The position numbers and the translations under genes were made by a program. DNA of 64,000 nucleotides, taken from Escherichia phage vB_EcoM_JNE01. The notes below the pieces were generated by a model that did not search any database, was not told the origin of the DNA, and saw only the letters and a program-made list of their open reading frames with translations. This document shows, piece by piece, positions 33,990-51,848 of the stretch. Numbering within the stretch: the stretch's first letter is position 1; each line of letters opens with the position of its first letter. The stretch lies in sequence record OR670491, one strand, 5' to 3'.

Positions 33990-34016
33990 TATTAATTTAA
34001 TAGAGGATAACAATAA

Positions 34017-34340: not shown

Positions 34341-34423
34341 AAACTATTGACAATGCAATCCAGTACTGTATAATAGTTTACATGAAGGAGAGAAATGATT
34401 CTCCCCACTAAGAGGAAAGAAAA

Positions 34424-34636: not shown

Positions 34637-34722
34637 AAAGTACTTGCACAGTACTGAATAAAGTGTATAATGTTTTATATCGGAAGGGGAATAGTTCCCC
34701 TCCGAACAAAGAGGAAAGTATA

Positions 34723-34896
34723 ATGGTCCAGGTAGAATTAACAGTACTGAAAGATCTGTTTTATCGGATTGGTACTACTGGCGAATATCCGAAGGGTGAT
34801 AATGCAAAACTTTACGTATCACTCGACTTATGGCAACGCGAACAATTAGCAACGGCCTGGCGTAAAGGCAAAGCAGATAGCGAGGTGAAAGCATGA
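34723..34896 (+). CDS. hypothetical small protein
   Basis: start moved to MVQVELTVLK downstream of promoter hairpin; SD AGAGGAAA. Confidence 0.5.
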   Translation: MVQVELTVLKDLFYRIGTTGEYPKGDNAKLYVSLDLWQREQLATAWRKGKADSEVKA

Positions 34897-35042
34897 AAGA
34901 ATTCTTATTTGAAGTAGTGTTTCAAGGTGTCGGTAATAACCAACTGATTCGATCAAGTGGTTATAATGTTAACCAGGCATGGAATAACATTAAACAAATG
35001 TACCCGAACGCTATCACATATCGCAACCCGAAAGAAGTTTAA
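34893..35042 (+). CDS. hypothetical small protein (49 aa, not in ORF track)
   Basis: ATGA overlap; hand-translated. Confidence 0.4.
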   Translation: MKEFLFEVVFQGVGNNQLIRSSGYNVNQAWNNIKQMYPNAITYRNPKEV

Positions 35043-35060
35043 AAATAATTGAAAAAGGGA

Positions 35061-35136
35061 TTGACTCCGGTCAGTCCCTTTGTTATTATATACGCATAGA
35101 AACAAATTAGCCCACCGGGTGCATAAATGTATCTAT
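35061..35136 (+). promoter_or_regulatory. terminator/promoter hairpin GGGATTGACTCCGGTCAGTCCC plus conserved element AGCCCACCGGGTGCATAAATGTATCTAT
   Basis: near-identical copies at 38336 and 41086. Confidence 0.45.
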
Positions 35137-35213
35137 TGTTTGCTGGTGGCTAGTACTGAAAACTATTTTTAAAAAGTACTTGCATTGTACTTAGAATCAA
35201 GTATAATGTTTTA

Positions 35214-35295
35214 CATCAGGACGGGGAACGAAATAAGTAACCCCGTTAAGTAGTCCAGGAGTAAGACATACGAAAAACTCCCCTGATAAAATAGT
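35214..35295 (+). ncRNA. candidate structured leader / small RNA (about 80 nt)
   Basis: second copy of the 24813-24895 element; differences preserve hairpin pairing. Confidence 0.3.
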
Positions 35296-35356
35296 TTGAC
35301 AATAGAAAGTAAACGAGTATAATACTTACATCAACCACTGATAAGGAAACATAAAA

Positions 35357-35632
35357 ATGCGGATTCTACTGACAGCTAACGAAATCGAACAAGTACTGAC
35401 TACTAATCTGGAACAATGGAAACGTGAAGCAGATATCCAGGCGGTTCAATGCCTTAACGATAAGTTAACGCCAGATGACTTAAGCACGATTGTTGATCCA
35501 CAATTTTATGAAGATATTCACGACACGTCTTTAAGCGTCGAGGATGTACTTGATAAGCACTACATTGATACTGATTTACATGTTTACGGTCGTAAAAACT
35601 TTATCACTATTCACGACATTTACAATACTTAA
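35357..35632 (+). CDS. hypothetical protein
   Basis: 91-aa ORF with third promoter and SD. Confidence 0.6.
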   Translation: MRILLTANEIEQVLTTNLEQWKREADIQAVQCLNDKLTPDDLSTIVDPQFYEDIHDTSLSVEDVLDKHYIDTDLHVYGRKNFITIHDIYNT

Positions 35633-35718
35633 GTATTGACAAAGTATCTTAGTACTGTATAATAGTTTACATCAAGGGGGGGAATGGTTCCCCTCCTAAC
35701 TAAAAGAGAGAAATAAAA

Positions 35719-35901
35719 ATGGCTAAGTGCACTATCTGTAATAAAGAAATAGTATTAGTTCCAAGTGCCCGTGAACGTGCCGCTCGGTTCGGTGGCAAAG
35801 CGTCAGACTATACAAAAATGTTTACTACCCATACAGCTTGCCAGGTAGCAAAACGTTCACAAGAAAGCGTAGAATTAATGCGTAAACTTTCCAAAAAATA
35901 A
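35719..35901 (+). CDS. hypothetical small protein
   Basis: 60-aa ORF with promoter, hairpin and SD. Confidence 0.55.
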   Translation: MAKCTICNKEIVLVPSARERAARFGGKASDYTKMFTTHTACQVAKRSQESVELMRKLSKK

Positions 35902-35989
35902 GTATTGACAAAGTATCTTAGTACTGTATAATAGTTTACATCAAGGGGGGGGGAATGGTTCCCCTCCTAACAAAGAGAGAGAAATAAAA

Positions 35990-36313
35990 ATGGCTATGAT
36001 CCTTACCCAGAAAGTAGAACTGAAAATTGTAACCTCCTTTGACATTAAAGTTAATCGGTGGACTGATAGCCACGGCAATACTTACCACTCCTGCTACGTG
36101 TCCGCATTGATTGGTGATCGCTGGGAAGACCTGGGACACGAAACCTTTACATACGGTTACGGCACACAAGGCGAGTACACGGGTTTAGAAATCATTAAGG
36201 AAACTGTAATAGGTTTCAACCCGAAAGAGAAAGTACTACACAGAATTGAGAAAGAGATCAACAAAGAAATTACAGTTCGCTACTACGATGTAAAACGTAA
36301 GAAAGACATGTAA
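35990..36313 (+). CDS. hypothetical protein (paralog of 29141..29464)
   Basis: shared RWTD.HGNTYHSCYVS and C-terminal KRKKDM. Confidence 0.6.
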   Translation: MAMILTQKVELKIVTSFDIKVNRWTDSHGNTYHSCYVSALIGDRWEDLGHETFTYGYGTQGEYTGLEIIKETVIGFNPKEKVLHRIEKEINKEITVRYYDVKRKKDM

Positions 36314-36325
36314 TAGAATCCATTT

Positions 36326-36364
36326 AAAGTACTATTTGACATTGCCCAGATAGTACTTTATAAT
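36326..36364 (+). promoter_or_regulatory. dyad AAAGTACTAT-N-ATAGTACTTT enclosing TTGACA, abutting TATAAT (operator-like)
   Basis: TTGACA 36337-36342, TATAAT 36359-36364; dyad arms on both sides of -35. Confidence 0.45.
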
Positions 36365-36412
36365 AGACTCTAACTTGTAGTACTAATTAACTTAACTAAT
36401 AGGATGTACACC

Positions 36413-36808
36413 ATGATTACTAAATTCTTCGCTACCCGTGAACAAGCTCGCATCGTTGCCCGTGAGGAAGGTGAAACATTTAAAGACATGGGTAAAGATT
36501 CTCCTACTGGTAAACGCTGGGCGGTACAGTTCAAAGAGATCTCTGATATTGTGAATTCACCTGAGCCTGTACTTACAGCAGCAGAACTAAAGCAAGCTCA
36601 AGAACTGGCTGAAGTACTGAACGCTCAAGATGACTTCTTGAAAGGTTCTGATATTGAAGTTACAGTTAACGCAAATGCATGGACTCACGCGGATCACCTG
36701 GCAAACCTTAAGCGTCCAAGTGAACTGATTCGTAACCAGAAAGAGATCCGTCATGACCGTAAAGGAAACCGTGTTACCGTATACAGTAAACGCCGCCAGG
36801 TTATCTAA
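36413..36808 (+). CDS. hypothetical protein (paralog of 23944..24210 with insertion)
   Basis: FATREQARIVAREEGETFKDMG...HDRKGNRVTVYSKRR. Confidence 0.6.
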   Translation: MITKFFATREQARIVAREEGETFKDMGKDSPTGKRWAVQFKEISDIVNSPEPVLTAAELKQAQELAEVLNAQDDFLKGSDIEVTVNANAWTHADHLANLKRPSELIRNQKEIRHDRKGNRVTVYSKRRQVI

Positions 36809-36831
36809 TACCTTGCAGTACTAACCAACAC

Positions 36832-36859
36832 GGCGGGAAGACAGTTCCCGCCTTTTTTA
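36832..36859 (+). terminator. rho-independent terminator
   Basis: GGCGGGAA-GACAG-TTCCCGCC plus TTTTTT. Confidence 0.65.
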
Positions 36860-36872
36860 TAGGACAAACAAA

Positions 36873-37127
36873 ATGATTAAGGTTCAACTATATAAAGATA
36901 ACATCTTACGGGTACACTATAAAGCACCTCAGAGAATCATCACAAAGGCCGTACAGCTTGCTAATGAGTTTATTAATGGTAACCTATTACCTAGGAAGTT
37001 AAGCAACGGGAAACTGCGTGTAATCGACGTGGACACTAACAACAGGATAGTAATCGAGAACACAGGAAAGATAAACCTTTATGAGCATCAACAATACAAT
37101 AAGAAAATAAAACTAATATCACGTTGA
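36873..37127 (+). CDS. hypothetical small protein
   Basis: 84-aa ORF. Confidence 0.55.
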   Translation: MIKVQLYKDNILRVHYKAPQRIITKAVQLANEFINGNLLPRKLSNGKLRVIDVDTNNRIVIENTGKINLYEHQQYNKKIKLISR

Positions 37128-37180
37128 CAGTACTCAATTGTTTTAGTACTATGTACACATACCAACACGGGAGAAACAAA

Positions 37181-37399
37181 ATGAAATTATCTAAAATCGA
37201 AAAGAAAACTATTGATGAAGCAGTTAAGCACGGTTATACCTTTCGTAATGATTCACATTTTACCAATTTTCAACAAGGGTATCGTACTATTAAAAAACTA
37301 ATTGACAAAGGTTTATTAGTTGAAGTCAATAACGGTAACGGTATCGAGTATCAACCAACACAGGACGCATTTTATTTTAAGAAATATAATATTATCTAA
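37181..37399 (+). CDS. hypothetical small protein
   Basis: start moved to MKLSKIEKK; promoter TTGACA...TACTAT and SD GGGAGAAA. Confidence 0.55.
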   Translation: MKLSKIEKKTIDEAVKHGYTFRNDSHFTNFQQGYRTIKKLIDKGLLVEVNNGNGIEYQPTQDAFYFKKYNII

Positions 37400-37457
37400 T
37401 TGACAGTACTCAAATGTTTTAGTACTATATGTACATACCAACACGGGGGGAAACAAA

Positions 37458-37700
37458 ATGATTACTTTAGAAAAACGTATCAAAGAAACTACATCGCTGG
37501 TGGAACTGTTAACAGTACTCAAATGTAAAACAGCACCATTCAGCACGCCGGACTTTATTAATATGGTTGATGTTAATGGTCGCTATCGTATCACGGTCGA
37601 ACAAGGAGCGGCGAAAGTATTCAGTACTAAAAACACGAAGGAAGTGATCCACGCCGTTAATGTTAAAAAAGTAGTTGCCATTGATAGTAAAGTACTGTAA
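37458..37700 (+). CDS. hypothetical small protein
   Basis: 80-aa ORF; promoter nearly identical to that of 37181. Confidence 0.55.
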   Translation: MITLEKRIKETTSLVELLTVLKCKTAPFSTPDFINMVDVNGRYRITVEQGAAKVFSTKNTKEVIHAVNVKKVVAIDSKVL

Positions 37701-37731
37701 TATAGTTTCATTAACTCAAGGAGATCATGCA

Positions 37732-38316
37732 ATGCGTAATTATACAAAATTCATCCGTACACTGTCAGAAATGGAAACCAACAAAGAGATCCTTTCAGCT
37801 TGTCGGTTAGCTGACCTGGAGATCATCGGTGCTGGTTCTTCCCGTATAGTTTTCGCTTTAAATGATCGGTTAGTGATTAAGGTCGCGAATTGTGATGCGG
37901 GTGTAGAACAAAATGAAACTGAATGTAAGGTATGGAATTTTTTAGACTATGACCGCCCTCAGTTGAAACAGTACTTTGCAAAGGTGCATATGCATTTATG
38001 CGATCCTGATAATATGTTTATCGTTATGGATCGGTTGAGTACTGCAAGCAAAGGCAGTGTGAAGCACGTAAACGCGTGCAATGAATTAAAGTACAATATT
38101 AAACGTAATGCAATCGAACGCCAGCACCGCTTTGCTGATGCACTACAACACGTTGATGATACATTATCAACACTAACGATAAGAGATATCAGAAAACAGA
38201 ATATCGGCCAGGATCGTAATGGACTTATTAAAGTACTTGATTACGGTTTAACCAGCAATATCTGGAATCAGTACTATAAAAAGCGTGATGTGGCAGCAAG
38301 TAAGGTAACACGATAA
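37732..38316 (+). CDS. protein-kinase-like protein (candidate phage Ser/Thr kinase)
   Basis: start moved to MRNYTKF; Gly-loop IGAGSSRIVF, VIKV lysine, catalytic-loop-like IRDIRKQNIG, DFG-like LDYGLT. Confidence 0.55.
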   Translation: MRNYTKFIRTLSEMETNKEILSACRLADLEIIGAGSSRIVFALNDRLVIKVANCDAGVEQNETECKVWNFLDYDRPQLKQYFAKVHMHLCDPDNMFIVMDRLSTASKGSVKHVNACNELKYNIKRNAIERQHRFADALQHVDDTLSTLTIRDIRKQNIGQDRNGLIKVLDYGLTSNIWNQYYKKRDVAASKVTR

Positions 38317-38335
38317 AAAAGATTAAAAAAAGGGA

Positions 38336-38416
38336 TTGACTCCGGTCAGTCCCTTTGCTATTATATATCCATTGAGAGATAACTCACTGACCCATAGGGT
38401 GCGGAAGTGTATCTAT
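38336..38416 (+). promoter_or_regulatory. terminator/promoter hairpin plus conserved element GACCCATAGGGTGCGGAAGTGTATCTAT
   Basis: copy of the module at 35061 and 41086. Confidence 0.45.
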
Positions 38417-38538
38417 TATATAAGTATTCAGTACTGAAAACTATTTTTAAAAAAGTACTTGCATTGTACTTAGAATCAAGTATAATGTTTTATATCGAGA
38501 GGGGGAAATGGTTCTCCCTGGCAATAAGGAATAAAATC

Positions 38539-38760
38539 ATGACTACAATGACTTGCATTTACGCTTCCAATCGTCTGAATGATGCGGCCTTTAATGTTGA
38601 TTCAGAATATCAATGTTATCGGGATGAAAATAAAAAAGTTTTTGTAGTTGATAATAATGGTTTCCATATTGAATTACAATCCGGCTTCACTGGTGTTGAT
38701 GGTAAATCAGTATGGGGCGTACAGGATGATAAAGGCACATATCATTTTAAACGTAATTAA
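38539..38760 (+). CDS. hypothetical small protein
   Basis: start moved to MTTMTCIYAS downstream of promoter hairpin. Confidence 0.55.
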   Translation: MTTMTCIYASNRLNDAAFNVDSEYQCYRDENKKVFVVDNNGFHIELQSGFTGVDGKSVWGVQDDKGTYHFKRN

Positions 38761-38843
38761 GTATTGACAAAGTATATCAGTACTGTATAATAGTTTACAT
38801 CAAGGGGAGAATAGTTCTCCCCGATACTAAAAGGAATAAAATC

Positions 38844-39248
38844 ATGACTACTACTAATCTTGCTCGGAATATCGCCAACGATAAAAATCATGCTGCAATG
38901 GTTGTTGGTTACATTGAAGCTATGCAATTCAGTACTGTACACAATGAGAACGGCGATTACCTGGAAGATTATGAATTATCAGAGCAAGCCCATCAAGCGG
39001 CAGTGATTGCATGTTCTCGCTTCATTGAGAAACACGGTAATGATCTGGAAGTAGTTCGCGGTATGTTTATTGATTACGGTTATGAGCAAGCTGGTCATGA
39101 TCTGTTCCTTACCCGCGAAGGTCACGGAACTGGTTTTTGGGATCGTGGTTTAGGTCACTATGGCGATGTATTCACGAAGTACTGCGAAGAAATCAACGTT
39201 TGCGATCCCTATGTAGGCGATGATAATCTAATCTATATGGGCGAATAA
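38844..39248 (+). CDS. hypothetical protein
   Basis: 134-aa ORF with promoter, hairpin and SD. Confidence 0.65.
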   Translation: MTTTNLARNIANDKNHAAMVVGYIEAMQFSTVHNENGDYLEDYELSEQAHQAAVIACSRFIEKHGNDLEVVRGMFIDYGYEQAGHDLFLTREGHGTGFWDRGLGHYGDVFTKYCEEINVCDPYVGDDNLIYMGE

Positions 39249-39335
39249 AAGTATTTGACAAAGTATATCAGTACTGTATAATAGTTTACATCAAGGGGAG
39301 AATAGTTCTCCCCGATACTAAAAGGAAACAAAATT

Positions 39336-39608
39336 ATGTCCAGCTACTCCGCTACTATGATCATTAAAGATATGAACGGTAATCCTACTTCTGCTGGTGG
39401 ATCATTTGGAAACATTAATTTAGATGGTCGGTTATCCATGCAATCAGCAATCGATGCAGCGAAAGAAGTTTTTAAGAATGAATGTACTGTTAGTAAGCTG
39501 GATTATATGGGATTTGCTATCGAAAAAACTAATCGTTTTGTGGACTACAAAAAACCACTGATGATTGATACTAACCTGAAAGCAAACGAAGTGGAGTACT
39601 TATTATGA
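39336..39608 (+). CDS. hypothetical small protein
   Basis: 90-aa ORF; promoter identical to that of 38844. Confidence 0.6.
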   Translation: MSSYSATMIIKDMNGNPTSAGGSFGNINLDGRLSMQSAIDAAKEVFKNECTVSKLDYMGFAIEKTNRFVDYKKPLMIDTNLKANEVEYLL

Positions 39609-39796
39609 CAGTTGAAGAAGTTAAAAAAGTACTGGCAGTACTACGCTATCATAATCATTGTAAGGTGAAGAATGATCCTGATTATCTTGATTCATCCCTG
39701 GAAGAGGATACACTACAAGCAATAAGCCATATGCAAACATTAGCAAAGCGTATGACCGAAAAGAATAGACCGGACTATATCGGAAATAAAATTTAA
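39605..39796 (+). CDS. hypothetical small protein
   Basis: ATGA overlap with previous gene. Confidence 0.55.
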   Translation: MTVEEVKKVLAVLRYHNHCKVKNDPDYLDSSLEEDTLQAISHMQTLAKRMTEKNRPDYIGNKI

Positions 39797-39882
39797 AAAG
39801 TACTTGCATTGTAGTTAGATTAACGTATAATGTTTTACATAGAGCGGGGGAATAGTTCTCCCGCCAGTCCAGGAGATACACC

Positions 39883-40146
39883 ATGAACACTATCGAAATC
39901 ACTATCAATGCACACGTATACGACAACGTAATCATGCAAACTACTATGACCGCTAATGATACCAGTACTTTGCGGAATACTGTTATTAGTGCTGTATGTG
40001 CCGCTATCGGTGATGTCGCCCTGGAAAATGCAAAACACGTAAACGATGGTTTCACTATGTGCAAACGTGATAACGCAAAACATATCATCGTGGAAGGTTA
40101 CGGCGGTGTAGAATTTAATGTTTATATGAAAAAAGTACTTGCATAA
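39883..40146 (+). CDS. hypothetical small protein
   Basis: 87-aa ORF with promoter, hairpin and SD. Confidence 0.6.
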   Translation: MNTIEITINAHVYDNVIMQTTMTANDTSTLRNTVISAVCAAIGDVALENAKHVNDGFTMCKRDNAKHIIVEGYGGVEFNVYMKKVLA

Positions 40147-40213
40147 TAACTAAAACAAAGTATAATGTTTTGCATAGGGGGAGATATCCTCCCCCACTAA
40201 AAGGAGTAATAAA

Positions 40214-40438
40214 ATGGCTAACTTTGATGAACTGATGCGGGAAGTAGCTAACCTGGCAGAAGAGAAGAAATCATTCGATTCTATCTATAACACCGCTCAC
40301 CGTGATTCAGTACTGGCATGTAACCAGGATCAAAAAGATGAACTAATCGCCACCTATCATGAAGCATGGAAGTACTACCGACAATGGGAGAAAGAAGAAA
40401 GTGAGTCTACCATTGACGGCCTCAATAATCTAATCTAA
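40214..40438 (+). CDS. hypothetical small acidic protein
   Basis: 74-aa ORF with promoter, hairpin and SD. Confidence 0.6.
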   Translation: MANFDELMREVANLAEEKKSFDSIYNTAHRDSVLACNQDQKDELIATYHEAWKYYRQWEKEESESTIDGLNNLI

Positions 40439-40514
40439 AAGTTTTATTTCAGTACTATTGACATAGCTTGATAGTACTGATGTAATAACTTTACTAACTA
40501 CAAGGGGAAACATA

Positions 40515-40772
40515 ATGGATCAGTTCACACAATATCGGGTAAATCATCAAGCTATGGCCTACGTAGAAGACCATAAAACGTTACCAGTACTGCAACCAGT
40601 TAAAGGCCATATCTATCGTGCAATGTCGTGGTGTACGGCCCAGGATGGCTATAAAACCGTAGCCGTTGGTATGTATTGCGGTAATGGTGAATGGTTTGAT
40701 CCAAATAATCCGGTAGCCATTGACAGTACTGAAAAAATGAAATGGGCCGACTACATCGAAGATATTTCATAA
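40515..40772 (+). CDS. hypothetical small protein
   Basis: 85-aa ORF with promoter. Confidence 0.6.
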   Translation: MDQFTQYRVNHQAMAYVEDHKTLPVLQPVKGHIYRAMSWCTAQDGYKTVAVGMYCGNGEWFDPNNPVAIDSTEKMKWADYIEDIS

Positions 40773-40861
40773 AAACTATTTGACAGTACTAACCAGTAAT
40801 GTATAATGTTTTACATAGAGCGGGGAATAGTTCTCCCGCCAATAGTTTGGAGTAAAACATT

Positions 40862-41062
40862 ATGTCTATCGCTATCGCCCTGGTTGAAGTACTGAAAGAA
40901 GCTAAAGCCAACCAGATCGACGTAAAGATCCAGGAACTACAAAACGGCTTAATCGGCTGTACTTGTACCGCTGGTGGAGCGGCAGACTATCGAGAACACG
41001 AATCACTCGAATCACTGGTTCGGTATCTTACCATGATCGTTGATGATTGGAGAATCATCTAA
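40862..41062 (+). CDS. hypothetical small protein
   Basis: 66-aa ORF with promoter and hairpin; contains in-frame Chi octamer. Confidence 0.55.
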   Translation: MSIAIALVEVLKEAKANQIDVKIQELQNGLIGCTCTAGGAADYREHESLESLVRYLTMIVDDWRII

Positions 41063-41085
41063 CAAAAAAAGAATAAAAAAAGGGA

Positions 41086-41159
41086 TTGACTCCGGTCAGT
41101 CCCTTTGCTATTATATACGCATAGACAAAAACTAGCCCACAGGGTGCATAGGTGTATCC
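41086..41159 (+). promoter_or_regulatory. terminator/promoter hairpin plus conserved element AGCCCACAGGGTGCATAGGTGTATCC
   Basis: copy of the module at 35061 and 38336. Confidence 0.45.
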
Positions 41160-41730: not shown

Positions 41731-42132
41731 ATGACTTTTTCTATCAATTCTTATGCTGACGTTTTAGTACTGGCTCGGACTTTTGGTAAAGATGCACTGG
41801 AGTACGCTGTAAGTAATGGCACTATCCAACCGGAACAGTGCCGCATCATTGGAAACTGCAAACGTTGGGCGGTTTCCAATACTATTGCACTGGAAAACTT
41901 CCACGATGGCAACAATGAATATTCTGTTGATGTAGTATTCGAAGCCGTTGATCTCGGCGGTATCTATAATACTAACCTGAATGATGTGCGTATCGTTCGC
42001 ACTGGGTTCGGTGCTTATGATGTATCTATTCGTGAAGCTATGAACACCGGATACATTAGCAAGGACTTACTTGCTCACATCATGCAGCTGTGTACGGAAC
42101 GTAACGAAGCACGCACTATCTTAGGACTGTAA
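41731..42132 (+). CDS. hypothetical protein
   Basis: start moved to MTFSINSYADV downstream of promoter hairpin; SD AAGGAG. Confidence 0.6.
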   Translation: MTFSINSYADVLVLARTFGKDALEYAVSNGTIQPEQCRIIGNCKRWAVSNTIALENFHDGNNEYSVDVVFEAVDLGGIYNTNLNDVRIVRTGFGAYDVSIREAMNTGYISKDLLAHIMQLCTERNEARTILGL

Positions 42133-42200
42133 GCGTTACACATCACCAAACATCATAGGCCGCCTTGTAGCGGCCTTAACTATATCAGGAGTACATACAC

Positions 42201-42410
42201 ATGATCTATACAGTATACAGCGTTCTAGGCACTATTGCAGGCGTACATGATAACGTCGATAGTGCTATGCGTACAGTACTGCAACAGGTTCCACTAAAGC
42301 CTAAGACCATTAAGCAGATGACAGCACGACTAACCAGGGCGACGGCTGGCGTGGAAGTATGGCAGGACTATGGGGATACACAGATAATCGTAAGCGTAAC
42401 GAAGGATTAA
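42201..42410 (+). CDS. hypothetical small protein
   Basis: 69-aa ORF, SD AGGAG. Confidence 0.55.
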   Translation: MIYTVYSVLGTIAGVHDNVDSAMRTVLQQVPLKPKTIKQMTARLTRATAGVEVWQDYGDTQIIVSVTKD

Positions 42411-42585
42411 TGCGTAAAAGGATTTAGTACTGATGCATTTTAAATTTTAGTCATTTTTTAAAAACTACGCAAAAAAACTAAACCAATACCTTAGCGTAAT
42501 AGTTTAGGGATTGGACTATGTTTTTATGCGTGGGGGGGCTAGTATGGGGTAACCTTAGCTCGATCGTGAAGTAGCCCATAGGGTA

Positions 42586-42613
42586 TTGACTTTTTATATG
42601 GAACGTGTAAAAT
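42586..42613 (+). promoter_or_regulatory. sigma70-like promoter (TTGACT-16-TAAAAT) for the LGT-family array
   Basis: preceded by truncated conserved element AGCCCATAGGGTAT. Confidence 0.45.
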
Positions 42614-42643
42614 CTGAATGATATAAATTATCAAGGAGTCCCC

Positions 42644-42874
42644 GTGAAAAACTTAAGTAAAGATGAATACGATGAGTTACTTATACGAACTGTTAATAAA
42701 GCCTTTGGAGCCGCTACACCGTTGATACGTTTGGATTACTTCCTTTCGGCTACTCTAGGAACTAACTATCAGGATTTTTGGATAGATAAGTATATTGCAC
42801 AACTAAAAGAAGATATAACTTACAAGGTAGTCAATTACACTATACAAAACGCTATTACTAAAGGTAACAAATGA
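42644..42874 (+). CDS. LGT-family small protein
   Basis: GTG start with SD AAGGAG; motif LGTNYQDF. Confidence 0.6.
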   Translation: MKNLSKDEYDELLIRTVNKAFGAATPLIRLDYFLSATLGTNYQDFWIDKYIAQLKEDITYKVVNYTIQNAITKGNK

Positions 42875-43098
42875 AAGTCATAACACAAACACAAGCGTAT
42901 TCACTTATGCTGCTTTACATGGATGACTTAACCAGTATCTCCCGTGACCTCAATCCTTTGATTAGGGGTCATCTGCAATGTGAGATTCGCATGTTGGCTG
43001 TACTGGGGACCAACTTTCAACTGGAGTACGTTGAAGAATATCTTTACGCACTGAAGAGGTATATTGCACATGAAGCACATCTCGCCGGACGAACATGA
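42871..43098 (+). CDS. LGT-family small protein
   Basis: ATGA overlap; motif LGTNFQLEY. Confidence 0.6.
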   Translation: MKVITQTQAYSLMLLYMDDLTSISRDLNPLIRGHLQCEIRMLAVLGTNFQLEYVEEYLYALKRYIAHEAHLAGRT

Positions 43099-43288
43099 AG
43101 AAATCATTAGAAAACTCACACAGCAAGCATTAAATCTGTATAACGATCCATCTAAAACATGGTATGAAAATAGAATCGCAGTGAGTGACTTATGGGTTCT
43201 GCACTTTATCGGGACACAGTATCAAGAAAGGTATCTGGATCACTTGATTGGACATTTACTGCAAGGAATTATAATTAAATGCGAATGA
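43070..43288 (+). CDS. LGT-family small protein
   Basis: start at ATG 43070 (29-nt overlap); motif IGTQYQERY. Confidence 0.55.
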   Translation: MKHISPDEHEEIIRKLTQQALNLYNDPSKTWYENRIAVSDLWVLHFIGTQYQERYLDHLIGHLLQGIIIKCE

Positions 43289-43527
43289 AAATCCTAAGCG
43301 AAGTAGAATTTTCTGAAAGAATGAAACTAGGAAGAAACGCCAGATTAAAAGTCTACGATGAAGTGGAGTTAACTAACACACAAAGAGCCGTAAAGCGTAT
43401 GGAAATAACATTACCTTACTTCCTTGGGACGAACTATCAGGAAACGATGATAATGAACTATATAAATGAACTTAAAATTCATATCCATGAAACATATCAA
43501 GGTGTACTGAATGAAAAAACTAAGTAA
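43279..43527 (+). CDS. LGT-family small protein
   Basis: motif LGTNYQETM. Confidence 0.55.
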   Translation: MRMKILSEVEFSERMKLGRNARLKVYDEVELTNTQRAVKRMEITLPYFLGTNYQETMIMNYINELKIHIHETYQGVLNEKTK

Positions 43528-43753
43528 TTACGATTACTTCAAACTATTGGACGGCATCAAAGGTGACATACGTTTAATTCATCAAACTGAATACATTCCA
43601 AGGGACGATAGGATTATTATTGTATCAGAAATGAAACTCAAACTCCTTGTGGGAACCGATAGACAGAATATCGCGGTGGACTTACTTATATCATCCTTAC
43701 GCAATAAGATATGGAACCAATATAATGAAGACAATCGACATAAAGGAATTTAA
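43511..43753 (+). CDS. LGT-family small protein
   Basis: motif VGTDRQNIA. Confidence 0.55.
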   Translation: MKKLSNYDYFKLLDGIKGDIRLIHQTEYIPRDDRIIIVSEMKLKLLVGTDRQNIAVDLLISSLRNKIWNQYNEDNRHKGI

Positions 43754-43952
43754 CATTAGACTGGCTCGAACTCGTGCACTAAGACAACAGATTTTCTACG
43801 ATACAAACACACCACAAACCAAAAAGGATGTTGCAATATCAGAGATTAACATGTATAGTACCTTGGGAACGCAATACCAAGAGATGTACGTCCAAGAGCA
43901 TGTACTGAACTTAAAAAAGGAAATCCAACATGAAATACATCGATGCCGCTGA
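43725..43952 (+). CDS. LGT-family small protein
   Basis: start moved to MKTIDIKEF; motif LGTQYQEMY. Confidence 0.55.
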   Translation: MKTIDIKEFNIRLARTRALRQQIFYDTNTPQTKKDVAISEINMYSTLGTQYQEMYVQEHVLNLKKEIQHEIHRCR

Positions 43953-44169
43953 AAAACAACGTAGATTAATGGAATCGCTTAAAGCATGTAAAAAGATTTT
44001 CAATGACTATACGATTACACATGAAGAACGAATGGTGCTAATCGCTGAAACCCGCGTTCTGGTTATGCTGGGAACATCTGAACAGGAAGGTGCAGTTGAA
44101 ATCTTACTTAAGGAAATGCAATTCCACTTAAAACGAAGAGGCAAAGATGAAACACTTGACAAGCGATGA
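43930..44169 (+). CDS. LGT-family small protein
   Basis: motif LGTSEQEGA. Confidence 0.55.
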   Translation: MKYIDAAEKQRRLMESLKACKKIFNDYTITHEERMVLIAETRVLVMLGTSEQEGAVEILLKEMQFHLKRRGKDETLDKR

Positions 44170-44434
44170 ATTGAATGCTAAATTAAACCATGCGTTCACA
44201 GTAAGAACCAGAATTATGATGAACAAGAATTACAGCATAAACGAAAAACGTATCCTCTGTGTAGAAGCTACGATGGGTGTACTGTTGGGAACCACTAAGC
44301 AAGAGCATCACGTTAATCTTGTTATCTCGGAGTTACTCCAGGAAATCAAAGGTAAAATCTATATTCAAAATATGAGTAAAGCTATCCACAGAAAGGATAT
44401 TGACTCTATCGTATCTTTAAACAGAGAAATTTAA
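44147..44434 (+). CDS. LGT-family small protein
   Basis: motif LGTTKQEHH. Confidence 0.55.
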   Translation: MKHLTSDELNAKLNHAFTVRTRIMMNKNYSINEKRILCVEATMGVLLGTTKQEHHVNLVISELLQEIKGKIYIQNMSKAIHRKDIDSIVSLNREI

Positions 44435-44688
44435 TGCAAAATGAAATGATATACTTAACGAACGATGAACTAAAAGTAAGGCTCGTTAAATCCAGAAGAG
44501 ATACCAATAACATCCCAAAAGACCCTATGCAATCACCCGCAGAAAGGAGTGCTGAAGTATTATATGCACAACTCTTGTACTTTCTAGGAACTGATAGACA
44601 AGAACATTACGTTCAATCCTGGCTTAGATACACTAAAATTACTATTCAAGAAAAGCTACATGAACAAGAATTTCCTAAGTCGGAGTAA
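44434..44688 (+). CDS. LGT-family small protein
   Basis: motif LGTDRQEHY. Confidence 0.55.
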   Translation: MQNEMIYLTNDELKVRLVKSRRDTNNIPKDPMQSPAERSAEVLYAQLLYFLGTDRQEHYVQSWLRYTKITIQEKLHEQEFPKSE

Positions 44689-44692
44689 TAGA

Positions 44693-44917
44693 ATGCAAAA
44701 ACCTAAACCACTAGGAACAGCAGAATACATTGAACTAATGGCAGTGAACTTCTCTGCATTTAAGAAACTGCTACAAGAATCAAAGAATGATTTAGAGTAT
44801 AAGATTAAGGGTTCTGATTTAAGATTGTTACTTACTCTAGGAACAGACATTCAGGATAAATCTGTTCAAGAGCATATCAGAGCACTTACACATAGCATCT
44901 GTCATAAACATTCCTAA
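44693..44917 (+). CDS. LGT-family small protein
   Basis: start moved to MQKPKPLG; motif LGTDIQDKS. Confidence 0.55.
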   Translation: MQKPKPLGTAEYIELMAVNFSAFKKLLQESKNDLEYKIKGSDLRLLLTLGTDIQDKSVQEHIRALTHSICHKHS

Positions 44918-44931
44918 ATCGGAGAAATACA

Positions 44932-45159
44932 ATGCAAGCCCAAATCAAAACTCTAACATCTAAAATGTATCACGATGGTTTAATGAAGAGATCACCACAG
45001 CTACTGGAAATTTCCTCAAGCGATAAAAGTGATGAAGAGATTGAAATGCTCATGCAGGAAGTCAGACTAGATATCACGATAGGCACTGATGCACAATCAG
45101 AATACATTGGTTATTATATTGATTGTACTAAAGATTACATCAAGAGCCTATGCCAATGA
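44932..45159 (+). CDS. LGT-family small protein
   Basis: motif IGTDAQSEY. Confidence 0.55.
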   Translation: MQAQIKTLTSKMYHDGLMKRSPQLLEISSSDKSDEEIEMLMQEVRLDITIGTDAQSEYIGYYIDCTKDYIKSLCQ

Positions 45160-45207
45160 CATATTAGTACTGAATACTTAGTACTAAATTTTAATTAGGA
45201 AAATAAA

Positions 45208-45561
45208 ATGAAAAACATTTGGGGAATTGAAAGTACTAGTACTAAACAAAATGATTTAGCACTTTCAGCGATTGGAGTGGAGTTTATTAATCTACAAGGA
45301 AAGACATTCTTTTTATCGTGTTCTTCTGATGATGACATTAATATGTGTTTTGAATTAGATAAACATAACATTTCTTTATCGTACATTAAAAGTGAAGGAT
45401 TATTATTATATAGAGTGTATGACACTTGTAGTACTATCAGTACTGTTTATTACATCCAGAATAATACTGGAATGATATTAGATCAAAATGGAAATGAACA
45501 CAATCTATTTGGTTTATCTTATAGGGATAGTTCTTATTTAATTTCAAAGATTATGGAGTAA
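45208..45561 (+). CDS. hypothetical protein (non-family insert in LGT array)
   Basis: 117-aa ORF, SD AGGAAAA. Confidence 0.55.
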   Translation: MKNIWGIESTSTKQNDLALSAIGVEFINLQGKTFFLSCSSDDDINMCFELDKHNISLSYIKSEGLLLYRVYDTCSTISTVYYIQNNTGMILDQNGNEHNLFGLSYRDSSYLISKIME

Positions 45562-45564
45562 TTA

Positions 45565-45789
45565 ATGCACACAATAACACCAAAAGAACTATGGCGTAGG
45601 CTAGGACTAACTGCTACTAACTCTAGTCCAATCAGGACTGACCCAAATCTGACTGTCCTAGAGAAGCGTGTTTTAATGCATGAATTACAATTGCACAAAA
45701 CCATAGGAACAAACTACCAGGAACAGTTCGTTGGAATTTACCTTAAGAGTTTACAAGATTTAATTAAACAGAATAAAAGGACATTATGA
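45565..45789 (+). CDS. LGT-family small protein
   Basis: motif IGTNYQEQF. Confidence 0.6.
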   Translation: MHTITPKELWRRLGLTATNSSPIRTDPNLTVLEKRVLMHELQLHKTIGTNYQEQFVGIYLKSLQDLIKQNKRTL

Positions 45790-46025
45790 GCATCATCTCA
45801 ATAACCCAAGATGAACTATTACGTAGGATAGGACTAACAACTGCCAGTGCTATTGCAATTCGTAATAATCCAAACTTTACAGTACTAGAAAAGTACGCTC
45901 TAATGTACGAAGTAAAATTGAATGCTATTTTAGGAACAAACTACCAAGAACAGTTCATTGAAAGTTACGTAAATGCCTTAAAAGATTTAATTGAACATAA
46001 TAAAAAGGAATATACCAGAATATGA
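45786..46025 (+). CDS. LGT-family small protein
   Basis: ATGA overlap; motif LGTNYQEQF. Confidence 0.6.
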   Translation: MSIISITQDELLRRIGLTTASAIAIRNNPNFTVLEKYALMYEVKLNAILGTNYQEQFIESYVNALKDLIEHNKKEYTRI

Positions 46026-46267
46026 GAATCATTACATCTCAACAGTACAGAAACATTATGCTCAATACTATCCCTGATTGCAGGGCAATAGATAAACTAA
46101 CCTTAAGACCTGATGAGCGAAAGTGCAAGTACTATGAACTTATGTACTTTAACTTACTGGGTACTAACTATCAAGAGCATCATATTAAAGCGTACTTAAA
46201 TGTTTTAAAGGAGAGCACTGAATACCTTATTGAACAATCTAAGAAAGCTAAAAAGAGACAGAAATGA
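46022..46267 (+). CDS. LGT-family small protein
   Basis: ATGA overlap; motif LGTNYQEHH. Confidence 0.6.
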   Translation: MRIITSQQYRNIMLNTIPDCRAIDKLTLRPDERKCKYYELMYFNLLGTNYQEHHIKAYLNVLKESTEYLIEQSKKAKKRQK

Positions 46268-46524
46268 CAGCAATGAAAGAATTAAGACACGAAGATTACT
46301 TTACTTTTATTTCAAAGCACAACCAACAGTACAAAGAATTTAAAGAGCAGAGTACTTCCCATTATGAGTACTGTGTATTAAGTACTGATTATACTTTAGG
46401 TTTTACAGTAGGAACTACATTACAGGAATACTCTATTGGTTTGCACTTAAATGCTTTAGAAAGATTAATTCAAAGTAAAGTCCTAGAACATGAACAAGAA
46501 AATAAAAATACTAACAAAAAGTGA
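46264..46524 (+). CDS. LGT-family small protein
   Basis: ATGA overlap; motif VGTTLQEYS. Confidence 0.55.
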   Translation: MTAMKELRHEDYFTFISKHNQQYKEFKEQSTSHYEYCVLSTDYTLGFTVGTTLQEYSIGLHLNALERLIQSKVLEHEQENKNTNKK

Positions 46525-46729
46525 ATACGCAGATATCATTTTCAATACTATGCACAAATACCAGTACTTAAAAGATAATTACGATTCTATAGAGTTAGAA
46601 GTTAAAAAAGCAGACTTAGATGTATTAATAGCTTTAGGTACTAATTATCAAAAGTACAGTACTCCAAGATTAATAGAAGCATTACTACAAGAGGTCCAAA
46701 GTAAATGCAATGACAATGACAATGAATAA
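46490..46729 (+). CDS. LGT-family small protein
   Basis: motif LGTNYQKYS; 35-nt overlap. Confidence 0.5.
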   Translation: MNKKIKILTKSEYADIIFNTMHKYQYLKDNYDSIELEVKKADLDVLIALGTNYQKYSTPRLIEALLQEVQSKCNDNDNE

Positions 46730-46976
46730 GAACATAGTAGTAATACAGTACATGAGTTCTGTGCAGTACAAAAATGAAATTGCTAAAATGCAGAGCAATA
46801 GTACAGAAGACCGTTCTAAGTACTTGTGGTTAGTACAATCCAGAGAAATCGTTTTAAATAAATTTATAGGGACAGATGCACAAGAGTATTGCTTAGAGCA
46901 GTACATTGAAGCGTTGATGATGCACATCAGAGGTCTTAAGAAATTACGTTACAGTATTGACAGTACCAGAAAGTAG
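46722..46976 (+). CDS. LGT-family small protein
   Basis: start moved to MNKNIVV; motif IGTDAQEYC. Confidence 0.5.
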   Translation: MNKNIVVIQYMSSVQYKNEIAKMQSNSTEDRSKYLWLVQSREIVLNKFIGTDAQEYCLEQYIEALMMHIRGLKKLRYSIDSTRK

Positions 46977-47025
46977 TGCTATAGTACCTGTACATTCAAG
47001 GTACGTTCAATAAAGGGTAGAGGTT

Positions 47026-47262
47026 ATGATTAAATTAGCATTCGGTATTGTAGTACTGGCACTTGCAATCAGCTTAGGTCTAGCTGCACTGGAAGTTAAT
47101 GAATTAGAAGAGATGCATTGCACAAAGACAGGACAGAGTAGAGTTGAAACGGTTTTGATTCCCGTAACGGTTATTGTGAATAATATGCCCATCACGAATC
47201 TGATTCCTACCCTAACGACAACGTATCAGTACACTTGCGATGACGGAGAGCGATGGAGATAA
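47026..47262 (+). CDS. small protein with N-terminal signal peptide or membrane anchor
   Basis: MIKLAFGIVVLALAISLGLAA hydrophobic N-terminus; SD GGTAGAGG. Confidence 0.55.
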   Translation: MIKLAFGIVVLALAISLGLAALEVNELEEMHCTKTGQSRVETVLIPVTVIVNNMPITNLIPTLTTTYQYTCDDGERWR

Positions 47263-47504
47263 TGCATTACAAACATCTTCCAGAAATGGAATTCAGACGC
47301 ATGTCCAAGTCAATCAGACAAAAATACATTGCAACACAAAGGTACAACCTAAAGTACAAGCACAATATTCATGACGAACGATTGCTGTACGTAGTAGGGA
47401 CAGAGTATCAGGATAGGGTTGTTAATTCATATTTGTACGCCCTAAAAGAGTACATCCTATATCTTTGTAATAACAACAATAACAGTACAAAGGACATAAA
47501 ATGA
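47253..47504 (+). CDS. LGT-family small protein
   Basis: motif VGTEYQDRV. Confidence 0.55.
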   Translation: MEIMHYKHLPEMEFRRMSKSIRQKYIATQRYNLKYKHNIHDERLLYVVGTEYQDRVVNSYLYALKEYILYLCNNNNNSTKDIK

Positions 47505-47821
47505 AATTTAATATCCTAAGAGTATCAAAAAGAGCGATTTATGCATATGAGTTTAATTATGATCAATTTGATGTAGATATCATTTTGTACAAGAACAGCC
47601 AAGGTGAAATGCTTTTTAAGTACCAAAATAGTGAAGCAGATAATATTCCTTTACCGGATTTAACCAAAATGCAAGAGGATGAATTCTTTCAGCAGAGCTT
47701 AGTATATGATATTGATTTTTATAGTATAGATATTCTTTTAGCTTTACAGAAAAAGATGCACGAAATCTTTAATGATTTAGTCCAGGGTGATGATAGCACA
47801 AGGTTCGTATTCTATGTTTAG
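47501..47821 (+). CDS. FQ-S family protein (short type A)
   Basis: ATGA overlap; motif EFFQQSLVYD. Confidence 0.55.
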   Translation: MKFNILRVSKRAIYAYEFNYDQFDVDIILYKNSQGEMLFKYQNSEADNIPLPDLTKMQEDEFFQQSLVYDIDFYSIDILLALQKKMHEIFNDLVQGDDSTRFVFYV

Positions 47822-48017
47822 AAACATAGATCCCAATCAGTACGCAACAATGTACAGAGATTATTGGATGCAAAGTTCCAGTACCAAGTCCCTTGCGGAA
47901 TTTCGTATGATATATTTTCTTGGTACAGAGAATCAAGAAGAAACGATGCTGGACTATATTGAAGTACTAAAGGTTGAAGTACAAGATGAATACATATTAG
48001 GGGTTATGGAGCAGTGA
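47814..48017 (+). CDS. LGT-family small protein
   Basis: start moved to MFRNIDPNQY; motif LGTENQEET. Confidence 0.5.
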   Translation: MFRNIDPNQYATMYRDYWMQSSSTKSLAEFRMIYFLGTENQEETMLDYIEVLKVEVQDEYILGVMEQ

Positions 48018-48508
48018 AATCGAGATTCGTTTCAGAGTTCAGTACAGACACGGTGTACGCTAAGGATTTAGTACAGTTATTAATTTCATTGCTCAAGGCT
48101 AAGGATAATTCAGAAGTTCAAGATTTGTGTAGTTCTTGTATCCGATATGCAGGTGGTAATTTGTATATTAATATAGATGGATTAGATCGTCCTATATATA
48201 AACAATCAAAATTCATCCAAAGTTGGACATACATTGATTTTGATAGTACATATTCGGCGTACACAAAAAGAAGTACAAAAACCTTTTTTACAATCCAGGG
48301 TAAAACGTATAATTTATTAAAAGAGCCATTAACAGAAGAAATGTATTTCCAGATGCAATGCTTAGGATTAAGTACAGAAGCGTTAAATGCTTATGTGCTT
48401 ATTGATGCTATGGATTATTTAGATTTAGATAAGTACGTTCCAGACGGATGGAGAATGTCTTTACCTTCGTTATTTGCAGTGTACAATACAATACATGGGG
48501 AACCTTAA
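48014..48508 (+). CDS. FQ-S family protein
   Basis: GTG start overlapping stop; motif MYFQMQCLGL. Confidence 0.5.
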   Translation: MKSRFVSEFSTDTVYAKDLVQLLISLLKAKDNSEVQDLCSSCIRYAGGNLYINIDGLDRPIYKQSKFIQSWTYIDFDSTYSAYTKRSTKTFFTIQGKTYNLLKEPLTEEMYFQMQCLGLSTEALNAYVLIDAMDYLDLDKYVPDGWRMSLPSLFAVYNTIHGEP

Positions 48509-49019: not shown

Positions 49020-49587
49020 CCCAGAAGAGACAGTATTTGAGTACACATATGAAAATGCTGTAGAGCTTTGTACAAAATTAAAAGAAGTCCTTCAAATTTA
49101 CAATTCCATTGTAAATGACCCAAAGAATAAAGATAAAAATGTAATCCAATTAAATGCATTTTGTTCCATAAACATAGCAAAAGACCATTCAGAATTACAG
49201 GTCCGTAAAACACAAGATAACGAGGACAAATTCAGATTCATCAGGAATTATCCAATATCAGATGTATTATCATATCTTAGTTTTCCACCTGGTCCTTGTT
49301 TGAGTAAAGAAGATACGGATTCATTTTGGTATAATAGTACATTCCAGTACATGGGTATTAATAACAAGGGTTCAGATGCAACGGACAGGATTGAAGTGAA
49401 TCAAAGTCCTAAAAGTGCAGAGGAATTCTTTCAGTACAGTACCCTTATGCATCCAAGAACAATTTTTTATTCATGCGTTTTAGATGCTTTGAAGAGTTCA
49501 GGTTTAGATTTACCGCATTTACGTTTCAACCCACAGAGCATTCCTAGTGTGTGGGAAATGTTAAAGAACGAGCCGCCTGTGTCGTAA
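49006..49587 (+). CDS. FQ-S family protein
   Basis: motif EFFQYSTLMH. Confidence 0.55.
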   Translation: MKYSNPEETVFEYTYENAVELCTKLKEVLQIYNSIVNDPKNKDKNVIQLNAFCSINIAKDHSELQVRKTQDNEDKFRFIRNYPISDVLSYLSFPPGPCLSKEDTDSFWYNSTFQYMGINNKGSDATDRIEVNQSPKSAEEFFQYSTLMHPRTIFYSCVLDALKSSGLDLPHLRFNPQSIPSVWEMLKNEPPVS

Positions 49588-49606
49588 GATACGGGCTTTT
49601 TTTGTA

Positions 49607-49635
49607 TTGACAAAAGCAAAAGTACCAAGTACAAT
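49607..49635 (+). promoter_or_regulatory. sigma70-like promoter (TTGACA-17-TACAAT) preceded by T-run terminator
   Basis: TTGACA 49607-49612, TACAAT 49630-49635, SD AAAGGAA, ATG 49664. Confidence 0.5.
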
Positions 49636-51482: not shown

Positions 51483-51670
51483 GTGAAAATCAGACCAAAA
51501 TAATTGACAGGATGGTATCCCTGCATATCAGTCAGTACCTTTATGATTCCAGAAGAGGTATTGATACATGGGACATTACAATGCAATGCATCAGGCTTTT
51601 TTATTCGGATTTTAATAATGGATTAAAATGGCTCCAAGAGAGAAAAGATGAGAAAGTACACCAGACATGA
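51476..51670 (+). CDS. hypothetical small protein
   Basis: ORF, 7-nt overlap. Confidence 0.45.
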   Translation: MLSENQTKIIDRMVSLHISQYLYDSRRGIDTWDITMQCIRLFYSDFNNGLKWLQERKDEKVHQT

Positions 51671-51848
51671 GTTTATAGTAGAAATTCAGGAAGTATTTCA
51701 GAGGTGGAAAGCCTTGGGTTTAGAGAATTTTCCGTATCAGGATTTTAAATTATTACATTTTTGGGGTAGTAATATGCAGGACGCTGTATTAAAAGAGTAC
51801 CTAAAAGAGATGCAGTACAAGATACAGTACAAGAAGGAACAACAATGA
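51648..51848 (+). CDS. LGT-family-like small protein
   Basis: motif FWGSNMQDAVLKEYL. Confidence 0.5.
   Translation: MRKYTRHEFIVEIQEVFQRWKALGLENFPYQDFKLLHFWGSNMQDAVLKEYLKEMQYKIQYKKEQQ

Follow-up and report, generated by a model that had tools for sequence, protein, structure and literature searches.

The MGF110, MGF360 and MGF505 families of African swine fever virus (ASFV) and the host-range families of poxviruses are tandem sets of diverged paralogs that occupy the most variable part of the genome and are tied to host range or immune evasion. We analysed a locus of related layout in a 64,000-nucleotide (nt) stretch of DNA from Escherichia phage vB_EcoM_JNE01 (sequence record OR670491), here called the window. 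Within positions 42644-48017 the window carries 19 paralogous + strand genes of the LGT family, which encode proteins of 67-95 amino acids (aa), and two diverged outliers lie at 51648 and 57818. Sequence comparison identifies the locus as an orphan gene that has expanded specifically in the RaK2/PBECO4-type lineage of jumbo phages; its 19 (+2) translationally coupled genes follow one conserved sigma-70-type promoter and leader. The reading that we favour, at a probability of roughly 0.4, is that of a putatively early operon for a panel of small proteins that share a scaffold and would bind different host or competitor targets. The likeness to the ASFV and poxvirus families lies in the tandem, diverged paralogs and in a copy number that varies between isolates; the hosts belong to a different domain of life, the sequences are unrelated, and a part in host interaction is conjectural for the phage.

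Several phage systems share single features with this locus. PHROG 4148 is the same family, since all ten members tested match it (E 1.8e-6 to 3e-17, over profile positions ~1-72 of 74), and its entry describes no function, fold or array. The zinc ribbon of phage G (~35 copies; Iyer et al. 2021, PMC7824862) is likewise a small domain present in dozens of copies in one jumbo genome, whereas the LGT fold is all-helical, lacks metal ligands and is encoded by copies in one overlapping, coupled operon. In the RaK2 paper, paralogues are simply said to make up ~10% of the phage's proteins (PMC3622015). The LGT family itself is described in neither of these two papers, and our literature searches found no paper describing it. 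Phage accessory and counter-defence regions likewise hold small, fast-turnover early genes between conserved flanks (bioRxiv 10.1101/2023.04.06.535777). Gene number is likewise altered by recombination in the anti-defence gene amplifications of T4 and T6 (PMC9391042, PMC13096335), but the LGT copies are ancient and diverged (~23% identity) rather than recent and identical, and they match no known counter-defence protein. Databases already contained the sequences, under PHROG 4148 and annotated as hypothetical proteins, and jumbo phages were known to undergo paralog expansions; new here are the recognition of more than 20 copies arrayed in a single operon, a confidently predicted fold without specific relatives, site-wise selection, the restricted distribution and a sharp, cassette-like boundary.

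Membership was determined with a family hidden Markov model (HMM) built from the 19 motif-bearing open reading frames (ORFs) of 42644-48017. These 19 score between E 8e-17 and E 1.6e-26, the outliers are recovered at E 3e-11 (57818-58027) and E 8e-8 (51648-51848), and the next best ORF of the 64-kb window reaches only E 0.065. The array is therefore confirmed, far beyond chance. A relaxed form of the motif is found in 20 + strand ORFs of the array region; the remainder of the 64 kb contains just two further occurrences, both in unrelated contexts. An earlier, sequence-only reading of this DNA had proposed a single paralogous family in a polycistronic unit. This proposal is supported, as are the two further members at 51648 and 57818; the HMM and PHROG 4148 both recognise the family. 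Its count of 18 ORFs in the main run becomes 19, and its C-terminal copy within 59455-59988 is not supported: the ORF at 59446-59988 scores E 3.7 over 12 positions and has the invariant Q replaced by R (LLGTNFREH). The genes are given below with their best-supported start codons; SD denotes a Shine-Dalgarno site.

42644-42874 (+): member 1, 76 aa, GTG start, strong SD AAGGAG (-8.0 kcal/mol); HMM E 6e-20; PHROG 4148 E 6e-13
42871-43098 (+): member 2, 75 aa, ATGA overlap; HMM E 3.7e-23; matches PHROG 4148
43070-43288 (+): member 3, 72 aa from ATG 43070 (ORF opens at TTG 43064); HMM E 7.8e-25; SD -7.1
43279-43527 (+): member 4, 82 aa; HMM E 4e-26; PHROG 4148 E 3e-17
43511-43753 (+): member 5, 80 aa; HMM E 1.4e-22
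43725-43952 (+): member 6, 75 aa from ATG 43725 (ORF opens at TTG 43647; the HMM domain begins at residue 27 of this long ORF); HMM E 6.4e-25
43930-44169 (+): member 7, 79 aa; HMM E 6.3e-24
44147-44434 (+): member 8, 95 aa with a long tail; HMM E 2.1e-24
44434-44688 (+): member 9, 84 aa; HMM E 1.6e-26
44693-44917 (+): member 10, 74 aa from ATG 44693 (SD -6.1, against -0.7 at 44660); HMM E 2.2e-22
44932-45159 (+): member 11, 75 aa, isoelectric point (pI) 4.6; HMM E 1e-23
45208-45561 (+): non-member in the operon, 117 aa; no family HMM, Pfam or PHROG match
45565-45789 (+): member 12, 74 aa; HMM E 7.5e-26
45786-46025 (+): member 13, 79 aa; HMM E 1.5e-25; the protein modelled below
46022-46267 (+): member 14, 81 aa; HMM E 1.2e-25
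46264-46524 (+): member 15, 86 aa; HMM E 4e-25
46490-46729 (+): member 16, 79 aa; HMM E 6.3e-23
46710-46976 (+): member 17, 88 aa; HMM E 1.7e-20
47026-47262 (+): non-member, 78 aa, hydrophobic N-terminal segment (membrane-anchored), two Cys; PHROG 8826; preceded by a promoter-like site at 46957-46985
47253-47504 (+): member 18, 83 aa; HMM E 2.4e-23
47501-47821 (+): non-member, short form of a second paralog family, 106 aa, 'EDEFFQQSL'; family-2 HMM E 6.8e-16; PHROG 13866
47814-48017 (+): member 19, 67 aa from ATG 47814 (ORF opens at GTG 47787); HMM E 8.3e-17
51648-51848 (+): diverged outlying member, 66 aa, WGSNMQD; HMM E 8.4e-8
57818-58027 (+): outlying member inside the second family's array, 69 aa, LGTQHQE; HMM E 3e-11

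The description of the genes as head-to-tail and mostly overlapping stands in part. With the start codons listed, 16 of the 22 junctions in 42644-48017 overlap (six by ATGA, one by TAATG and nine by 8-35 nt), and the main run is interrupted by three non-members, at 45208-45561, 47026-47262 and 47501-47821.

The window belongs to a rare sub-lineage of Asteriusvirus-type (PBECO4/121Q-like) jumbo myoviruses, and its nearest relative is Escherichia phage Turkey5 (351 kb, 96% identity), the sole near-complete megablast match to 42000-48500. For some 34 further jumbo phages of the Asteriusvirus type from E. coli and Salmonella, including PBECO4, 121Q, G17, phAPEC6 and fEgEco12, the match is limited to the first ~438 bases of that interval. 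Every gene under a megablast match is annotated as 'hypothetical protein'. Public annotations omit many members or truncate their starts, as in PBECO4 NC_027364 (locus L002, 21147-29246) and Turkey5 PQ471516 (locus L001, 7139-7363, 7722-8027 and 10767-11003), and the Turkey5 orthologue of member 3 carries no annotation. Gene overlaps of up to 35 nt are apparently the cause of this under-annotation.

Copy number at this site ranges from 21 to 29 per genome across 14 related loci, and PBECO4-type loci hold 24-29 copies detectable by the HMM. A tblastn search with the HMM consensus matched 45 phage records: 31 Escherichia and 4 Salmonella phages with 13-21 places each, and 10 RaK2-like Klebsiella phages with 1-3 each. 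In Klebsiella phage Muenster, an HMM scan identified at least nine members of reduced length (58-73 aa), arranged in small clusters. When 1.84 billion representative proteins were searched with the profile, just 87 clusters matched, all of 44-96 aa except two of 122 and 269 aa. By the tblastn records, the Muenster scan and these clusters, the family is confined to the RaK2/PBECO4 clade, with its greatest expansion in Asteriusvirus and fewer copies in Alcyoneusvirus. The locus can be classed as a viral multigene family, or lineage-specific expansion, because it consists of clustered, diverged paralogs (~23% identity) that number 21 in the window and 21-29 in the 14 loci and that undergo gains, losses and rearrangements.

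Translation signals and selection both bear on whether these small genes are real. SD-like complementarity averages -4.65 kcal/mol at family starts and -1.39 kcal/mol at other ATGs of the region, and strong SD sites precede 57% of family starts but 7% of other ATGs; many family SD sites fall within the gene before them. When the window is compared with Turkey5, family members differ by 41 synonymous and 58 nonsynonymous changes, which gives a dN/dS ratio (omega) of 0.34, against 0.23 for neighbouring genes. Between fEgEco12 and a second PBECO4-type phage (L005) omega is 0.40. We then pooled 367 members from 14 loci in 40 orthogroups (at least 80% identity) and counted changes along minimum spanning trees, which gave 470 synonymous and 666 nonsynonymous changes and again an omega of 0.34. 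Synonymous and nonsynonymous changes numbered 12.5 and 1.5 at G47, 12 and 0 at T48, 4 and 0 at Q51, and 10 and 0 at L62. No column inside the domain has an omega above ~0.8, and positive selection is rejected at the available resolution. Position by position, the ratios thus point to purifying selection with G, T and Q essentially frozen, with no positively selected domain site and no signature of an ongoing arms race. The C-terminal tail, which overlaps the next gene, reaches ~1.0-1.3 in columns 71-76.

An omega of 0.34 and G, T and Q columns essentially frozen under many synonymous changes show that the genes are maintained by purifying selection and that the motif is no compositional artefact, a possibility raised in the sequence-only reading and contradicted by the synonymous-rich G/T/Q columns. 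The same data make it very improbable that the array is evolutionary debris, that is, duplicated ORFs that serve no function today and persist through chance or hitch-hiking. Debris would fit the lack of a known homologue or function, the many copies left unannotated in public genomes and the neutrally evolving C-terminal tails. It is at odds with the low omega and the invariant G/T/Q, with reading frames that are intact in 367 copies from 14 loci, with SD sites embedded in upstream genes and with a very confidently predicted fold. SD-like sites, purifying selection and the fold together support the members as real genes.

Alignment of the 21 window members gives a mean pairwise identity of ~23%, with G and Q invariant and T nearly so. 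The strict motif [LIV]GT[NDQ][YF]QE-x-[YHF], which the sequence-only reading ascribed to all members, fits 5 of the 21 by our reading of the motif list, and the truly common form is h-G-[TS]-x-x-Q. Over 150 distinct sequences the motif positions are G in 139, T or S in 150 and Q in 148, and the conserved segment that contains the motif reads L-x-x-x-L-G-T-[ND]-[YF]-Q-[ED]-x-x-[VI]-x-x-[YH]-[IL]-x-x-L-x-x-x-I-x-x-K. Both terminal thirds had been called highly variable. This is true of the C-terminal tail, which varies freely; the N-terminus is conserved across the 150 sequences as M-K-x-[LI]-[TS]-x-x-E-[YF], helix 3 carries a conserved E/D, and it is helix 2 and the following loop that vary instead. 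Most exposed positions also differ among paralogs.

An AlphaFold2 run on the paralog alignment with member 13 (45786-46025) gave a model with a predicted local distance difference test score (pLDDT) of 97.2 and a predicted template modelling score (pTM) of 0.82. It has four helices, at residues 8-16, 19-26, 33-47 and 54-78, and a one-residue bridge links the N-terminal strand (residue 4) to the G-T segment (residue ~51). By this model, each member is predicted to be a soluble protein of 67-95 aa with the same compact four-helix fold. The fold would be pinned by its hydrophobic core and by two capping boxes, one ahead of helix 1 ([ST]-x-x-E) and one ahead of helix 4 (G-T-x-x-Q), because both conserved polar motifs sit exactly at helix N-termini. 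The core motif is probably in the main a structural clasp, located where helix 4 begins and linked by the bridge to the conserved strand at the N-terminus of the protein. What remains of the proposal of a conserved core with variable specificity surfaces is therefore a conserved scaffold and variable surfaces, with a core motif that behaves as a structural element and would not appear to be a demonstrable binding site. No Cys or His position is conserved, pI spans 4.2-10.0, the grand average of hydropathy is negative in 20 of 21 members, and the conserved positions contain no hydrophobic segment. The members thus appear soluble and non-enzymatic and have no common charge character; with no conserved Cys or His and with pI from 4.2 to 10, neither enzymatic activity nor a uniform role in binding nucleic acids is likely.

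One specific nucleic-acid binder was considered separately. The members could be degenerate helix-turn-helix (HTH) domains of the XRE/Cro-C1 type that have lost helix 1, acting as sequence-specific DNA-binding regulators or nucleoid-associated proteins, which we regard as unlikely. In the model a two-residue turn joins helices 8-16 and 19-26, and helices 1-3 of one LGT pair align with XRE helices 2-4. The genes at 45565 and 45786 give sub-threshold matches to HTH_26 (E 0.02-0.04); the latter also aligns with HTH helices 2-4 of HipB (E 0.3) and reaches E 0.0035 with the NCBIfam HipB model, whose cut-off is 79 bits. In hhalign the LGT K-x-L-T-x-x-E-Y falls in register with the XRE 'g-h-T-Q-x-E-L-A', and by our reading LGT 'LG[TS]xx[QE]' recalls the XRE turn 'LGVSxxEL'. 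Phage G offers a precedent, where the ~35 zinc ribbon copies were proposed to be transcription factors (PMC7824862). However, the best score against the XRE models (PF13443 HTH_26, PF01381 HTH_3) is 15.4 bits with a gathering cut-off of 22, only 3 of 139 members match HTH_26, all below threshold, and hhalign returns P 0.04-0.09 and a probability of ~1%. The lead thus comes down to a single gene pair and does not reach significance for the family as a whole. Helix 1 is missing and helix 4 is long, conservation is lowest in the helix that would serve for recognition, a region that carries deletions in some members, pI falls to 4.2, and K2 and K69 are the only conserved basic positions.

Searches for other relatives were negative. 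No member tested passes a Pfam threshold, a PDB sequence-profile search gave one chance match and nothing real, and PADLOC-DB defence models gave two chance matches, each to a single member. Foldseek matches in BFVD were uncharacterised Asteriusvirus proteins alone, which are the family's own members. Characterised anti-defence proteins (Acr, Ocr/Ard, Tad, Apyc and others) had no match in PDB or BFVD, in a search that did not include a dedicated anti-defence library. Immunity and antitoxin families (Pfam Imm*, SUKH, NCBIfam) had no consistent match among 21 or 139 members. Neither structure nor sequence revealed a specific relative outside these phages. The suggestion of an immunity- or antidote-like family consequently finds no support in similarity to immunity, antitoxin or defence families in Pfam, NCBIfam, PADLOC, PDB or BFVD.

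A poly-immunity or antidote role was nevertheless weighed on the evidence of gene order, with each member neutralising a different toxin, either a polymorphic toxin of host or competitor or a protein of the second paralog family. Polyimmunity loci of the SUKH/Imm type likewise consist of small, diversified head-to-tail paralogs of one fold (PMC3113570, PMC3482391), and small, diversified, non-enzymatic tandem paralogs are their hallmark (PMC3113570). LGT members interleave with family-2 genes at 47253/47501/47814/48014, at 51648 and at 57818. A natural fusion also exists: P0081 (269 aa) joins an N-terminal LGT domain to a region of ~200 aa without known identity, and is encoded just after the array end in other Asteriusvirus genomes (L005 8001-8810, L006, L007 and phage UB L016 11836-12645). 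Polyimmunity loci differ from the LGT array, which shows no Imm/SUKH or antitoxin match, has no adjacent toxin domain and belongs to a lytic phage. The two families mostly occupy separate blocks rather than cognate pairs, and the window holds 21 LGT members to ~29 of family 2. The second family ('EE.FQ.S') gave a model of moderate confidence (pLDDT 73.6) with no fold match and no recognisable toxin fold, and so provided no functional anchor; kinship between the two families is rejected (hhalign probability 0.3%). On balance we consider the antidote role quite improbable.

Comparison between phages shows how the locus changes. The window and fEgEco12 are 95% identical in nt up to 42642, two bases before the array start codon; beyond that point almost no DNA similarity remains, across the two paralog arrays and as far as the window extends. 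The mosaic boundary is sharp, 42642/42644 in the window corresponding to 2090/2092 in fEgEco12 (locus L004), and the start codon is GTG in the former and ATG in the latter. The best fEgEco12 protein counterparts are collinear for about the first ten genes and mostly 24-50% identical, with two at 70-79%; member 9 (70%) is one of just two members with a close orthologue there. DNA matches of array members to fEgEco12 are found at 44424-44673 (75%) and 44705-44909 (83%), and the last match of the region (47111-47265, 82%) lies in the 3' part of the non-member 47026-47262. In the comparison of the window with Turkey5, synonymous divergence (dS) in the array does not exceed that of neighbouring genes, and an elevated mutation rate is rejected as the cause of the lineage difference. 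Because of this, we infer from the alignments that a block of more than 21 kb was replaced by recombination with a more distant relative rather than altered by hypermutation. The two orphan paralog arrays (42.6-63.6 kb) make up ~21 kb of the window and are the block that differs most between near-identical phages.

Within the PBECO4-type group, members are 51 to 100% identical, close relatives differ by order swaps, gains and losses, and only about one orthogroup in three occurs in 10 or more of the 12 loci. Relative to Turkey5, a 176-bp deletion in the window (L001 8475-8650) took most of one member (L001 8479-8697) and joined two members, which accounts for the 95-aa fusion product of member 8. 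Members 12 and 13 are the youngest duplicate pair (53% aa and 72% nt identity); their repeat, 45572-45778 against 45799-46005, is the only one detectable in DNA apart from a motif-coding stretch of ~25 nt. Because DNA similarity is limited to this pair and this stretch, the duplications are old, and recent 'accordion' amplification is rejected.

This turnover also bears on a role in serving the phage itself, with the members as chaperones or adaptors for paralogous structural or replication parts, or as a module that docks a common partner through the K2/T5/E8/E39/T48/Q51 cluster. The strictly conserved polar residues may cluster at one end of the modelled bundle, where residue 4 bridges to ~51; every paralog is under purifying selection, and the phage has other large paralog sets, such as the nine RCC1-like proteins at 5697-16965. 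Such a role is nonetheless rather improbable, as the array sits in a putatively early, accessory and lineage-variable part of the genome and its copy number and content vary between near-identical phages, which would be unusual for conserved machine components. A passage on the JP4 virion proteome names four other hypothetical proteins as structural.

The transcriptional setting of the array is defined by two predicted elements.

42586-42613 (+): sigma-70-like promoter TTGACT-16-TAAAAT, 10/12 matches in the promoter scan, within the 233-nt leader
49575-49596 (+): intrinsic-terminator-like hairpin, the first one 3' of the array, followed by a promoter-like site at 49607-49635

The leader (42411-42643) carries the strong AAGGAG SD site. 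Its -35, -10 and SD blocks are conserved between the window and each of Turkey5, fEgEco12 and L005, even though the coding array that follows is not the same. Further blocks conserved across lineages lie upstream of the promoter (AGGGATTGGACTATG, ATGCGTxGGGGG and GGGTAACCTTAGC) and have no Rfam match; the region as a whole contains no Rfam family or tRNA, and the leader DNA pattern matched 121Q alone in IMG/VR. A terminator scan found no + strand terminator-like site between 42644 and 49575, and the transcription unit likely ends at 49575-49596. Upstream, the 22-41 kb interval holds many small + strand genes, hairpins and, on the same strand, 13 perfect TTGACA-16/17-TATAAT sites, and its 98 promoter-like sites exceed the 64 +/- 7 expected. 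This is the pattern of a putative early region read by the host polymerase.

These observations can be assembled into a tentative mechanism. Host RNA polymerase would transcribe the operon early, with or just after the promoter-dense upstream region, and the products would form a panel of small binding proteins without enzymatic activity. Each protein may retain a separate target in the host or a competitor, such as variants of a defence factor or of another polymorphic host factor, and lineages would alter the panel by gaining, losing or swapping genes or the whole array through recombination, not by rapid point mutation. Of the functions offered in the sequence-only reading, 'diversified binding proteins' is the most plausible, on the basis of genomic context.

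Four points weigh against a target-binding panel. No known anti-defence, immunity or host-takeover protein resembles the members in Pfam, NCBIfam, PADLOC, PDB or BFVD. The classic arms-race signatures are absent, with no domain omega above ~0.8, no recent amplification and paralogs that are old. Early timing is suggested by promoter-like sequences only. The conserved polar cluster could also be a common functional site, which would imply one shared partner and not many. A stronger version of the panel, which we consider doubtful, would make the array and the second family together a repertoire exchangeable by recombination, in which more than 20 mini-proteins under one promoter, built on an ultra-stable four-helix scaffold, each serve as a dedicated inhibitor or decoy for a different component of host immunity or a different polymorphic surface or toxin component. 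If so, the cassette content of the operon would set the host range of broad-range jumbo phages, and the locus would be a phage counterpart of the ASFV and poxvirus multigene families on a previously undescribed fold family.

Asteriusvirus and RaK2-type jumbo phages are under development for therapy, and more than 80% of their genes are functionally uncharacterised. The G-T-x-x-Q signature and the HMM make the LGT family easy to annotate. Should the mini-proteins prove to be host-targeted binders, they would form a ready-made library of small, well-folded inhibitors and could help to explain host-range differences between isolates.

Further features of the window were recorded alongside the array. 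A second set of + strand promoter-like sites, TTGCAA-16-TATAAT, runs through 22000-41000 at roughly one per small gene. A 28-nt hairpin, AAAGGGATTGACTCCGGTCAGTCCCTTT, is repeated on the + strand at 31036-31063, 35054-35081, 38329-38356 and 41079-41106; the -35 hexamer TTGACT lies within the stem and a TATTAT -10 comes after the hairpin, which makes this a reused cassette that combines a terminator-like stem with an overlapping promoter. The ORF at 37675-38316 (+) is the counterpart of a gene annotated as 'serine/threonine-protein kinase' in Turkey5 and fEgEco12 and has no Pfam match at E <0.001; this putative kinase shares the early region with a family that carries an invariant Thr. A third paralog array is formed by nine consecutive minus-strand ORFs of 358-447 aa at 5697-16965 (-), and three of the four ORFs scanned there contain RCC1-like beta-propeller repeats (PF25390, PF00415).

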